Assembly: GCA_964016885.1 (NCBI GenBank)
Contig: OZ024747.1
Span: 64,728,001-64,792,000 of the forward strand
DNA from: Eledone cirrhosa
Lineage: Eukaryota
Length of the DNA stretch: 64,000 nucleotides
Reading direction: 5' to 3'
Shown here: in pieces, positions 21,411 through 64,000 of the stretch
Layout of the letters: each line of letters starts with the position of its first letter
Numbering within the stretch: position 1 is the first letter of the stretch
Position numbers and translations under genes: made by a program
The notes under the pieces: generated by a model
Told to the model about the DNA's origin: nothing
What the model saw: the letters and a program-made list of their open reading frames with translations, nothing else
The model's database searches: none

Positions 21411-22178
21411 AGTGGCACTAGTTCGATTCTTTAATGTAAAACACGGTTTCATTGGTGGTGGTGGTGGTGGATTTGGTTGTTTTGTCATTTGTAGTAGGCT
21501 TATTGGAGGACGATTTTGTTGGCATGTAGCATGTCTCAGACGAAGTCGGCGGAAAATATCTTTGTAGTTTTTGTTATTTTCGCATGAAAACGGATCCATT
21601 TATTGTATCTTTCTTAGTGATGTTGTAGCAAACCTTCCACATAATAATGATATGTCATGTTGGCTTTTAGGATGAACTTGTACGGGGTCATCATCAAAGC
21701 AAGAACCTTACCTCGTTACCGTGTTAAAGTTCTTCGGAATATCCTTGAGGATTGGTAAAACAAAATTCCATATTTTCCTTCAAATAAACACATTGATACC
21801 AAGGATGCTTTTGTAATCTTAATGAGGGAGATGGGTATAGTAGCAGGAAGTATAAGGATATTAGAAATGTCAGCAGAAACACAATGGCTATAAAAGATTT
21901 ATATAAAAATCTTTATATATATGTATGTGTGTGTGTATATGTGCATGTATATATATATATATATATATATATATATATATTTATTCAGGTTTGAGGTTCA
22001 CCACTGTATAGAGCTGGTCTATTCCGTATGGTCAATCGTAATGCAATAATATAGAGAGTACTCAACGTAAGGCAGTTCAACCGTCTTTGTTTTTGTAGTT
22101 GGTGGTGCTATTACGGAGTTAAATATTATAATGAAATGACAGGAGGCTGGATTTGTGTAAATCCTTGAAAGGTTTATT

Positions 22179-22236
22179 ATACTATGATCATTTCAATGAC
22201 CGGGTTCCGTATGAATCCGGTGATATCATCAGGTAT
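22179..22236 (-). ncRNA. Minimal hammerhead ribozyme, family B (left arm)
   Basis: Reverse complement of the HHR at 26222-26279. Confidence 0.7.
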
Positions 22237-24109
22237 TCGAAATATAATACGTGAATGTAATAGGTAAAATCCATGGGGCTGAAAATCGAGACCCGAGGGC
22301 GACCGCTATTCTGTTCCTTCAACCTCAGCCGATCGCCCTGGAGTGACGTGGCTAAATTTTACAGTATGCTACTACCGGTCAGATGAACGAAAACAGAAAG
22401 GGATGAGAGCATAGGTTAACGTCGATCCCATGACACACGGTAATAGAAAGAAAGAAAGGAAGGACAGAGAAGAAGGGGGAAGAAAGAAGAAGAAGAGAAG
22501 CCAGGGTTAATGTCAGCTAAAAGAGGAAGGCAACTACTACTGGTCAGATATAGGCAAGCAAGAGGGGGAAGGAAGATAAGTCTGCGGGAGGAAGACAGGG
22601 GGAGAGGAGAAGAGAAGGAAGGGAAGAGAGAAGTAGAAAAGTAAGGGTTGATGGCTACAAGAAGAAAGATAGAAAGAAAGAGGAAGAAAGGTCGATATTA
22701 ATGTCAGGCCACAGTGAAGCCAGGAGTGGCGCGAGAAAAGTTTTACAGGGACCCGCATCTTAGCAGAGGTGAATATATTGGGAGTCAGTGTTTTACAGTG
22801 TTTAGACTTCTAGGATGAAGTTAAAAAAATTAATAATCAATATTCAATATTAAAGAGGTTAGAAAATTTAAAGTTCAACAGTTTAACATTTAATTATATA
22901 ATAGTTCCGATTTGTTCTGTAATTTAAAGGTACTATTTGGCGGTTAAAACACCGGCCGCGCCCCGGGCCCCATGGCGAACTAAGCCACGCCGAGTATTTT
23001 CATTTACTGAAAGAAGGGGAAATTTATTTTTCCAAGCACTCCAGGTGAGCTCGTTCGCAAGGGAGCCGGTCGCGCCGCCATTAAAACCCACCCAACAGTC
23101 CGACAGAAAGTTTGAACTTTAAAATTTTGCTTAGAGAAGTAAAAGAGTAATGGTTGATAGCTACAAGAAGGAAGATAGAAAGAGAGAGGAAGGACGGTCG
23201 ATATTAATGTCACACCACAGTTGGGCCAGGAGTGGCGCGACAAAATTTTCACAGGGACTCGCATCTTAGCAGAGGTGAATATATTGGGGGTCAGTGTGTT
23301 ACAAGGTTTAGACTTATAGGATGAAGTTAAAAAATTAATAAATTAATAATCAATATTCCATATTAAAGAGGTTAGAACATTTAAAGCTCAACAGTTTCAG
23401 GTTGATACATCTAATAGTTCCGATTTGTTCTGTAATTTAAAGGTACTATTTGGCAGTTAAAACACCGGCCGCGCCCCGGGCCCCATGGCGAATTAAGCCA
23501 CGCCGAGTATTTTCATTTACCGAAAGAAGGGGAAATTTATTTTTCCAAGCACTCCAGGTGAGCCCGTTCGCCAGGGAGCCGGTCGCGCCGCCGTCAAAAC
23601 CCACCCAACGGTCCGACAGAAAGTTGGAACTTTAGAATTTTGCTTAACTCTATCGGATGAAGTTGAAAGAATTTAGAATAACATTATAAAACTAAGGAGT
23701 AAGAGGATTGAGAATTGAACAAACAGAAAATTGAAGATTAAACATTCAAATAACTTCTACGATTGACCATACGGAATAGACCAGCTCTATACAGTGGTGA
23801 ACCTCAAACCTGAATAAATAACGCTCCTGAAATGTTGAGCACTTCAAAATGTAATAATCAACAGCGGCATGGGACTGAATATATCTAACCACAATTCGAA
23901 CTTTGGCTACCCGGTGCTTTCGCCTGGCCCTTTGCTACTCCCCTCACAGAATATCCGAACTTCGACGAAACTCCACGGACTGGACCATAACATGTATTGT
24001 ACTGCACTGAATTAACTAAATGGCTACCCTATACTTCTGGGCATGTATAACTCACACTGAACTCCCAGACTCGAACACACACTGTTTCCACATCTATATG
24101 CATTATCTG

Positions 24110-61500: not shown

Positions 61501-63636
61501 TATTACAATTAGATTCTCGATAAAAGCAAGGGAAGTAATCTACGCGTTTCATTCTTGTTAGAATTCATCAGGACCACATATCCAGTGCTTTTATCGAGAA
61601 TGACACAGCTAGAGACTTATAGAATACTTAGCTGTGTACAGGAACTGGTTTGAAAGAGCGGTTGCCGGTCCGGCAGAAATTAGAAATTGGAATAAATGCT
61701 CTGAAATAGCGATATATATGTGAATATAGACATAGAATATTCGAAAATATTCTGTATGTTTATAATAAACATTTTGAAGACCTAATCGCTATAGAATAGA
61801 ATACGTCACGTATTACAATTAGATTCTCGATAAAAGCAAGGGAAGTAATCTACGCGTTTCATTCTTGTTAGAATTCATCAGGACCACATATCCAGTGCTT
61901 TTATCGAGAATGACACAGCTAGAGACTTATAGAATACTTAGCTGTGTACAGGAACTGGTTTGAAAGAGCGGTTGCCGGTCCGGCAGAAATTAGAAATTGG
62001 AATAAATGCTCTGAAATAGCGATATATATGTGAATATAGACATAGAATATTCGAAAATATTCTGTATGTTTATAATAAACATTTTGAAGACCTAATCGCT
62101 ATAGAATAGAATACGTCACGTATTACAATTAGATTCTCGATAAAAGCAAGGGAAGTAATCTACGCGTTTCATTCTTGTTAGAATTCATCAGGACCACATA
62201 TCCAGTGCTTTTATCGAGAATGACACAGCTAGAGACTTATAGAATACTTAGCTGTGTACAGGAACTGGTTTGAAAGAGCGGTTGCCGGTCCGGCAGAAAT
62301 TAGAAATTGGAATAAATGCTCTGAAATAGCGATATATATGTGAATATAGACATAGAATATTCGAAAATATTCTGTATGTTTATAATAAACATTTTGAAGA
62401 CCTAATCGCTATAGAATAGAATACGTCACGTATTACAATTAGATTCTCGATAAAAGCAAGGGAAGTAATCTACGCGTTTCATTCTTGTTAGAATTCATCA
62501 GGACCACATATCCAGTGCTTTTATCGAGAATGACACAGCTAGAGACTTATAGAATACTTAGCTGTGTACAGGAACTGGTTTGAAAGAGCGGTTGCCGGTC
62601 CGGCAGAAATTAGAAATTGGAATAAATGCTCTGAAATAGCGATATATATGTGAATATAGACATAGAATATTCGAAAATATTCTGTATGTTTATAATAAAC
62701 ATTTTGAAGACCTAATCGCTATAGAATAGAATACGTCACGTATTACAATTAGATTCTCGATAAAAGCAAGGGAAGTAATCTACGCGTTTCATTCTTGTTA
62801 GAATTCATCAGGACCACATATCCAGTGCTTTTATCGAGAATGACACAGCTAGAGACTTATAGAATACTTAGCTGTGTACAGGAACTGGTTTGAAAGAGCG
62901 GTTGCCGGTCCGGCAGAAATTAGAAATTGGAATAAATGCTCTGAAATAGCGATATATATGTGAATATAGACATAGAATATTCGAAAATATTCTGTATGTT
63001 TATAATAAACATTTTGAAGACCTAATCGCTATAGAATAGAATACGTCACGTATTACAATTAGATTCTCGATAAAAGCAAGGGAAGTAATCTACGCGTTTC
63101 ATTCTTGTTAGAATTCATCAGGACCACATATCCAGTGCTTTTATCGAGAATGACACAGCTAGAGACTTATAGAATACTTAGCTGTGTACAGGAACTGGTT
63201 TGAAAGAGCGGTTGCCGGTCCGGCAGAAATTAGAAATTGGAATAAATGCTCTGAAATAGCGATATATATGTGAATATAGACATAGAATATTCGAAAATAT
63301 TCTGTATGTTTATAATAAACATTTTGAAGACCTAATCGCTATAGAATAGAATACGTCACGTATTACAATTAGATTCTCGATAAAAGCAAGGGAAGTAATC
63401 TACGCGTTTCATTCTTGTTAGAATTCATCAGGACCACATATCCAGTGCTTTTATCGAGAATGACACAGCTAGAGACTTATAGAATACTTAGCTGTGTACA
63501 GGAACTGGTTTGAAAGAGCGGTTGCCGGTCCGGCAGAAATTAGAAATTGGAATAAATGCTCTGAAATAGCGATATATATGTGAATATAGACATAGAATAT
63601 TCGAAAATATTCTGTATGTTTATAATAAACATTTTG
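58588..63636 (-). repeat. 310-bp tandem array (16 full units plus a partial unit), one hammerhead ribozyme per unit: candidate retrozyme satellite
   Basis: AATAAATGCT recurs at 58591, 58901, ... 63551; only two substitutions noticed (60677, 60802); the left end abuts (TA)n. Confidence 0.95.
58745..58787 (-). ncRNA. Minimal type I hammerhead ribozyme of the array (first of 16 copies at +310-bp steps, last at 63395-63437)
   Basis: GTGGTC-CTGATGA-ATTCT-AACA-AGAAT-GAAA-CGC-GTA-GATTAC: 6-bp stem I with two G-U pairs, 5-bp stem II, palindromic ACGCGT stem III, GUA cleavage triplet. Confidence 0.88.
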
Positions 63637-64000
63637 GATGAATTCTAACAAGAATGAAACGCGTAGATTACTTCCCTTGCTTTTATCGAGAATCTAATTG
63701 TAATACGTGACGTATTCTATTCTATAGCGATTAGGTCTTCAAAATGTTTATTATAAACATACAGAATATTTTCGAATATTCTATGTCTATATTCACATAT
63801 ATATCGCTATTTCAGAGCATTTATTCCAATTTCTAATTTCTGCCGGACCGGCAACCGCTCTTTCAAACCAGTTCCTGTACACAGCTAAGTATTCTATAAG
63901 TCTCTAGCTGTGTCATTCTCGATAAAAGCACTGGATATGTGGTCCTGATGAATTCTAACAAGAATGAAACGCGTAGATTACTTCCCTTGCTTTTATCGAG
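63637..64000 (+). repeat. Inverted continuation of the 310-bp array, running off the window; intact HHR at 63939-63981
   Basis: Exact reverse complement of the monomer, starting inside the HHR core at GATGA. Confidence 0.93.

Follow-up and report, generated by a model that had tools for sequence, protein, structure and literature searches.

In a 64,000-nucleotide stretch of the Eledone cirrhosa genome (contig OZ024747.1; "the window" hereafter, at its full length), repeats carrying a type I hammerhead ribozyme (HHR) lie as pairs of arms joined head to head, with their 3' ends pointing outward, mostly against (TA)n, and with one long and one short outer end at positions fixed for each family. 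This polarity rule is real and genome-wide, and we consider it likely that the pairs are made by a protein of the Hydra clade of Penelope-like elements (PLEs) that cuts both strands of its target and reverse-transcribes from both ends at two fixed start sites. Head-to-head inverted copies with an optional one-sided tail are known in PLEs (PMC3846280, PMC8557442).

The original prediction had named six "fold-back" structures in the window, each with a minus-strand HHR on the left and a plus-strand HHR on the right and most with (TA)n at one or both ends. We checked the window by direct reading, self-BLAST and an HHR motif scan with a relaxed stem II (an over-strict stem II version missed most of the window HHRs), and found the ribozymes so arranged at all six places, the last being an array of 310-bp units with 16 minus-strand units followed by plus-strand units. 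Five of the six are true head-to-head inverted pairs; the structure at 32.25-32.86 kb joins two families, its arms carrying HHRs from different families and giving no inverted match by self-BLAST. "Fold-back" is the wrong word in most cases. The 22-26 kb structure has no spacer between its arms: a minus arm of 1.78 kb and a plus arm of 2.58 kb, both from one unit of ~2.66 kb, meet at 23758-23762. Outer (TA)n tracts are present at most structures but not at the left end of the 42 kb pair. Three two-armed insertions beyond these six (39.75-40.01, 42.9-43.9 and 46.73-47.01 kb) obey the same rule, and the window also holds two single-armed copies (34.86-37.34 and 43.95-44.28 kb).

Two-armed insertions have one long and one short end

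The pattern per two-armed insertion was one long plus one short outer end at fixed positions. Measured from the HHR cut site, the outer ends of 310-bp arrays lie at unit positions ~165 (long) and ~130 (short) in all 14 arrays in which both can be read; a fifteenth two-armed array is interrupted by a short interspersed element (SINE). Family A ended at about +60 and at +201 to +203 in all 19 readable loci, leaving a tail of ~140 nt, and family C at +22 and +90 in all five readable pairs, the other five of its ten loci showing the long end alone within the reference. Half of the family D loci (5/10) were clearly long plus short. In a blind sample of 39 blocks of 20 kb (780 kb) taken at round coordinates on 16 contigs, we read by eye 22 same-family divergent pairs within 1 kb, of which 16 were long plus short, 4 were unreadable and the remaining two are weighed below; one further 310-bp array in this sample likewise had a long and a short end. 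The autonomous Hydra-type element described below showed the same layout, with ends ~90 nt apart, in both two-armed copies whose ends were examined. The one-sided extension is the Penelope "tail", here 35-140 nt, and the footprint of Penelope, an inverted truncated copy with a tail at one end, was found in families A-E and others.

The 310-bp repeat is a retrozyme whose arms are homogeneous

The 310-bp "satellite" is a young, dispersed retrozyme. Its unit gave 356 matches among 40 scored candidates, of which those listed (150) were 99-100% identical, and it occurs on at least 12 contigs as a tandem unit in the 150-450-bp range with a type I HHR per unit, no open reading frame (ORF), low GC and a fold z of -5.4. 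Family D is its sister at the DNA level. We fetched 18 arrays, and the 15 that are two-armed all run minus then plus. Variants within arrays were either fixed in all covered units (nine arrays) or confined to single units, with one intermediate array in which the variant is present in 5/6 units. Both arms of an array share one haplotype (agreement across the arms in 6/6 informative arrays; six more all-reference). The central junctions fall at scattered, non-mirror positions, and those outside the overlap count given below hold a short insert, in one case (L042) 55 nt of another repeat family. The source of that insert is the 47.2 kb family of the window, which forms many one-tailed mini-palindromes in the blind sample.

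Rolling-circle copying of a ribozyme-made monomer circle is probably the best explanation of these homogeneous multimeric arms. The competing account that fares best also has double priming, but derives the multimers from linear read-through transcripts or from later unequal crossover instead of circles, and local amplification is the reading of a recent preprint (bioRxiv 10.64898/2026.07.22.740005). It gains from the array with a variant in five of six units, from the two unlike units within the family E pair, which would suit a linear precursor, and from the finding that HHR cleavage is dispensable for the Poseidon protein in vitro (PMC11167929); moreover, RNA circles were shown in the retrozyme papers, whereas the repeat is known here from DNA alone. 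However, variants that sit in all units or in a single one, with one intermediate case in 18 arrays, point to a one-unit bottleneck, and local amplification is hard to square with arms of opposite orientation that are homogeneous together and end exactly at the start sites. We therefore regard a linear or local origin as rather unlikely. Self-joining contigs of 340 nt in the sequencing runs considered below are uninformative on circles, since tandem DNA yields them too.

The 310-bp unit also occurs in 20 sequencing runs from 17 studies under 18 organism labels. Six of these were examined, and the occurrences were rejected as evidence of horizontal transfer: the host tRNA-SINE is also present in runs X5, X7 and X15 and is deeper than the unit there, as in the host-rich run X1, which makes trace host DNA likelier than transfer.

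The two arms were probably copied separately

At five family A loci (L138, L139, L141, L144 and the 22-26 kb structure of the window) the arms are not nested, each having sequence that is absent from the other; at L144, a long-end arm of 40 nt lies wholly outside the other arm. Neither arm can therefore be a DNA copy of the other, and each was copied separately from RNA. In the 310-bp arrays, the long-end arm is the longer one in 9/14 and the shorter one in 5/14. A family A variant that seemed common to both arms of the window copy was dropped as haplotype evidence, since it reflects the common allele as against a private change in the window.

These arms bear directly on self-priming, by which one cDNA would fold back and be copied into a mirror arm before the endonuclease trims the second end; the idea was put forward in PMC3846280, and PMC8557442 speaks of "EN-mediated resolution" (EN, endonuclease). 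Self-priming would also give outward 3' ends and one haplotype in both arms, family A junctions cluster at an internal hairpin with an overlap of several bases, and two blind pairs have identical ends, one of them with an apparently mirrored flank. Yet the copied arm must lie inside the template arm, which fails at all five loci above, and the junction phases of the 310-bp arrays are not mirror images. Self-priming is thus refuted wherever the arms are not nested, barring a jump of the enzyme back to the RNA, and as a general account we consider it improbable.

As an observation on the same family, L141 (C18:4326300-4334700) comprises two complete two-armed family A insertions mirrored around a ~4.8-kb centre, a palindrome of palindromes.

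Polarity and (TA)n association hold genome-wide

A strict HHR scan of the blind sample gave 40 matches, and homology expansion seeded with these and with nine window HHRs gave 112; reversed decoys gave 0 in both cases, so the matches are not due to chance. By rough extrapolation from these counts, the 3.0-Gb genome would hold ~150,000-430,000 HHR motifs. An Rfam scan of the window returned a single HHR among the matches listed (150 of 181), and that one below the gathering score; the remaining Rfam matches were mostly chance microRNA matches on simple repeats. The helix III segments are mostly short palindromes, and HHRs with a short palindromic helix III have been reported to be active as dimers (PMC4209133).

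The proposed check of HHR orientation and (TA)n proximity came out in favour of the rule. Adjacent opposite-strand HHR pairs were divergent in 24 cases and convergent in 5 within 500 bp (p=5.5e-4); wider spans gave 25:8 (1 kb) and 28:15 (5 kb). A (TA)n tract separates the two members of each of the 15 convergent pairs within 5 kb, the pattern that independent insertions into a single tract should leave, and no such tract lies between the HHRs of 23 divergent pairs within 1 kb. (TA)n lay within 200 bp on the 3' side of 91/112 HHRs and on the 5' side of 47/112, against 22% of random positions, whereas only 21 of 169 tRNA-SINE copies in the same sampled DNA, which served as our control, were near TA (12%; HHR versus SINE, p=2e-32). 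The SINE showed no polarity bias (divergent:convergent 8:6 within 1 kb). All 20 family A loci, including five chosen as apparent singles, proved to be two-armed and divergent, and the listed opposite-strand pairs were all divergent in family C (2), family D (at least 4) and the autonomous element (4). Target-site duplications (TSDs), which had been called not evident, are unreadable inside (TA)n, so that their absence is not shown. The GC content of the window is 34%, and its first ~58.6 kb contain 203 TA runs of at least five repeats. At L187:5346-5573, two autonomous copies of different subfamilies stand tail to tail across a short TA run, an expected outcome of two separate insertions.

Among 82 local inverted repeats of the blind sample, at least 24 contain an HHR. 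Another 48 have no detected HHR or SINE; HHR-family 3' regions were matched on both arms in two of these, a one-sided extension to (TA)n was seen in 19, and the remainder are unexplained. That 36 of the 48 match no collected HHR-family sequence, that the genome is rich in (TA)n and that a (TA)n-centred palindrome of non-element DNA, which may itself be a DNA-level fold-back, adjoins the 3' end of the Penelope remnant (34577-34694) could speak for palindromes formed at the DNA level (cruciform cleavage at (TA)n or replication template switching) or for assembly fold-back artefacts. Such an origin is very improbable, as it predicts neither a link to RNA polarity nor long and short ends at positions set for each family, the SINEs of the sampled DNA lack both polarity and TA bias, and arm identities of ~80 to 100% are as expected of real insertions of different ages; DNA-level palindrome formation may account for a few symmetric cases.

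An autonomous Hydra-type element shares the layout and a paired motif

At first look, the genome holds 34,632 candidate matches to the reverse transcriptase (RT) fragment of the window, including some whose open frame spans 821 aa, and the 3' ends of this autonomous family were 98-100% identical at the best 40 of 1588 candidate sites. By eye, one 821-aa frame (P0001) has RT motifs and a C-terminal NLIY..YFG region, together with DKT, a CxCx5C linker and CxxC..E..N..CxH, which are marks of the Hydra clade; it has RW-T/I at the RWK position, and the HHR-to-HHR distance is 3.7-3.9 kb. A Pfam scan found no significant family for the 821-aa ORF or for the Penelope pieces of the window, and the 15 homologues of P0001, all unnamed, are 32-38% identical. 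The element carries a type I HHR in its terminal repeat and inserts in (TA)n. By its motifs, we would place this young family as a Hydra-clade PLE. Residues ~600-680 of P0001, between RT and endonuclease, form an asparagine-rich stretch reminiscent of the N-rich inserts described in PLEs (PMC3846280).

Just past the short end, a paired motif, ACTC..GAGT(A/G)C, is present in the autonomous element, in families A, B and C and in four T-type copies, and one family has GCTC..GAGC there, a change on both sides; it was not seen in four other families examined. The blind sample is enriched for the motif (73 versus 20 decoy matches; 40 versus 0 with (TA)n downstream), and in the 48 inverted repeats without detected HHR or SINE it pointed outward beyond one arm in 9 and inward in 0. 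We propose it as a candidate protein binding site. Among 14 representatives of the HHR families, two pairs alone are related at the DNA level.

A non-exhaustive search gave no autonomous partner for the 310-bp family. Open frames of other, more distant Penelope-like families are present at L180:7312-9442 and L191:1465-2673, and these are possible partners.

A model of double-ended priming

In the mechanism that we favour, a protein dimer would bind the RNA near the small paired motif just past the short end, and its GIY-YIG domains would nick both strands of (TA)n. Each 3'-OH would then prime its own cDNA, one at the short site and the other 35-140 nt further 3'; two start sites so spaced would leave a tail on one end only. 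Both cDNAs would stop at variable 5' points, and 0-3 nt of microhomology or a short insert would link them head to head. For the 310-bp family, the template is probably a monomer circle made by the ribozyme, on which continued copying would yield arms of as many as 16 identical units. The non-coding HHR families would be parasites of Penelope-type proteins.

As the most economical account, double-ended target-primed reverse transcription follows from this anatomy together with the Poseidon experiment, in which the protein cleaves and extends both strands in vitro, uses two internal start sites that bound the tail and is modelled as a dimer (PMC11167929). The shared Penelope-type mechanism at (TA)n and the priming from both DNA ends that had been proposed from the window are supported. 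The strongest evidence, which the original prediction lacked, lies in the fixed long and short ends, the single haplotype per array, the non-nested arms and an autonomous element of the same layout; the claim of many unrelated non-coding HHR families agrees with the 14 representatives. Two terms of that proposal are not supported: the families are not all "small", the family A unit being ~2.66 kb, and "twin priming" in the sense of L1 does not fit arms that share sequence and have two fixed start sites.

Several points weigh against this model. The evidence for this genome is DNA sequence alone, and the start site of Poseidon is the same for both strands (PMC11167929), so that the obligate long-plus-short layout is not yet explained by the Poseidon result. 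Ends were equal on both sides in 2/18 readable blind pairs and roughly equal in the 42 kb pair of the window, 5/10 family D loci were unreadable or ambiguous, and 3/18 of the 310-bp arrays are single-armed. The unconditioned polarity contrast within 1 kb (25:8 for HHRs, 8:6 for the SINE) is not significant (Fisher p=0.30), because the SINE has few such pairs, and some circularity enters the TA-conditioned contrast (23:0 versus 6:5, p=0.002), since TA lies at the 3' ends themselves. Junction overlaps of 0-3 nt in 13 of the 310-bp arrays are weakly enriched (mean 1.4 against 0.76 expected, p=0.04), and one haplotype per array cannot separate one RNA from two sibling RNAs of one donor. Finally, the 310-bp family and family D have a weak variant of the paired motif, and no parasite family could be aligned to the examined autonomous family beyond the short motif and the HHR.

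We give even chances to a stronger form of the model, in which integration is obligately asymmetric: a dimer on one small RNA stem primes each cut strand at its own fixed site, both subunits copy a ribozyme-made RNA circle by rolling circle, one event writes a kilobase-scale palindromic satellite and RNA circles are a main source of the palindromes and satellites of this genome. If true, such events would have produced hundreds of thousands of HHR loci belonging to at least a dozen unrelated non-coding families.

Comparison with known systems

In L1 twin priming, both target strands prime, and the product is an inversion; its pieces come from one RNA without overlapping, and it has a single poly(A) end and a TSD. 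The pairs described here differ in that the arms repeat the same 3' region, begin at fixed internal starts and have no poly(A) end.

They resemble endonuclease-containing PLEs in the head-to-head inverted 5'-truncated copy, partial tandems, one-end extension, HHR in the terminal repeat, microsatellite bias and unreadable TSD (PMC3846280, PMC8557442). Unlike the published elements, those of this genome are mostly non-coding and have tails of ~35, 68, 90 and 140 nt as against 30-40; the long-plus-short layout is nearly obligate, arms are non-nested and both can be long multimers. The Hydra clade shares with the autonomous family the C-terminal GIY-YIG, DKT, CxCx5C, CxxC and CxH around E and N, a canonical HHR and (TA)n targets (PMC8557442), but its units are generally <3 kb (3.7-3.9 kb here) with RWK in place of RW-T/I, and the copy number here is very high. 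The Poseidon element PAc likewise has an AT-rich target and has both strands extended in vitro (PMC11167929); it belongs to a different clade, and its start sites lie inside the ORF, whereas ours lie upstream of the first Met. In the accessible text of PMC11167929, no strand is paired with a site and inverted products are not reconstituted.

Metazoan retrozymes without long terminal repeats are tandem AT-rich units of 150-450 bp with a type I HHR, a short palindromic helix III and no ORF, as is the 310-bp family, and their mobilisation by PLEs via circular RNA is a published hypothesis (PMC7229834, bioRxiv 10.64898/2026.07.22.740005). In the accessible text of these two sources, two-armed arrays, fixed start sites and TA targeting are not described, and the word "inverted" is absent from PMC7229834 and occurs in the preprint in a reference title alone. 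Within the open-access literature, which leaves subscription papers, Repbase and supplements outside our scope, we found no description of two-armed retrozyme arrays, near-obligate long-plus-short ends, non-nested arms, 140-nt tails or the shared stem.

How PLEs make tandem and inverted insertions with a one-sided tail has been posed as an open question (PMC8557442), as have the identity of the enzyme that moves animal retrozymes and whether circles serve as templates for arrays (PMC7229834). What we describe is largely as originally predicted, but the architecture is a known one of which this is a variant; the gain is a set of sharper rules and a tie between retrozyme arrays and integration of the Penelope type. 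The findings speak against two ideas, that the arms arise by self-priming and that retrozyme arrays grow by local events only. With its thousands of young, near-identical insertions, this genome allows sharp predictions to be counted, and it supplies natural materials for experiments, namely a Hydra-type protein with an open frame, a 310-nt RNA whose start sites are mapped, a stem that is a candidate for binding and a very simple target.

Features of the window

Table 1. Arms, pairs and remnants of HHR-bearing elements in the window (strand "." where both arms are given together).
Feature	Position	Strand	Remarks
Family A left arm	21981..23762	-	Long ("tail") 3' end at (TA)n 21948-21979; HHR 22176-22237
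Family A right arm	23758..26335	+	Short 3' end at (TA)n 26335-26366; HHR 26221-26282
Family B-like arm	32249..32640	-	HHR 32296-32351, U4A core; 3' end at (TA)n; inner boundary approximate
Older family A arm	32645..32858	+	Intact HHR 32749-32810; short end at (TA)n; inner boundary approximate
Broken Hydra-type Penelope-like element	34861..37340	-	RT and C-terminal GIY-YIG pieces in three frames; single-armed; decayed HHR 34891-34947; HHR-bearing short 3' end adjoins (TA)n
Two-armed stub	39753..40009	.	Minus arm long end, plus arm short end; SINE piece central
Family D left arm	42092..42464	-	HHR 42207-42256, C3U/G8A core; no (TA)n at this end
Family D right arm	42465..42655	+	HHR 42485-42535; short end at (TA)n
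Family E two-armed insertion	42908..43930	.	Minus arm 42908-43215 (long end); plus arm 43216-43930 (partial tandem, decayed HHR 43743-43800, short end)
Single-armed family F copy	43946..44280	-	HHR 44085-44140 (Rfam RF00163, 31.7 bits, E 6e-4, below gathering score 34)
Two-armed insertion	46731..47013	.	HHR cores back to back 46890/46899; long left, short right; (TA)n both sides
Family C pair	49355..49846	.	Minus arm long end, HHR 49433-49490; plus arm short end, HHR 49780-49837; centre ~49637; (TA)n both sides; tail ~68 nt
Older family C pair	56362..56546	.	Minus HHR 56362-56417; plus HHR 56416-56467 (G12A), long end; left arm truncated by another repeat
310-bp retrozyme array, left arm	58587..63636	-	16.3 units; long end (phase 165) at (TA)n 58557-58586
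310-bp retrozyme array, right arm	63637..64000	+	4.5 units in total; extends ~1035 bp past the window; short end (phase 130) against (TA)n

The family A unit is non-coding and has an internal duplication of ~510 bp, and the older family A arm is 86% identical to 26173-26366. In the family E insertion, a tRNA-SINE occupies the matching place in both arms. In the 42 kb pair, both HHRs combine a variant core, C3U plus G8A, with a stem I that is weak; C3U/G8A cores recur in HHR families of the blind sample (L051, L115, L087, L123), where some TTGAAAA cores were also seen.

Other repeats of the window include two tandem copies of ~520 bp (96%) between TA runs at 33490-34531, which have a CTGATGA core and no complete HHR by scan, and two tRNA-SINE copies back to back, without an HHR, at 51609-52087. 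More TA-flanked palindromes or stubs of repeat families lie at 3973-4366, 27531-27730, 47046-47325 and 48873-49350. On the minus strand at 6041-11188, we observed pieces of a retrotransposon without long terminal repeats, namely an ORF1-like frame, an apurinic/apyrimidinic (AP) endonuclease (PF03372), RT (PF00078) and zf-RVT.

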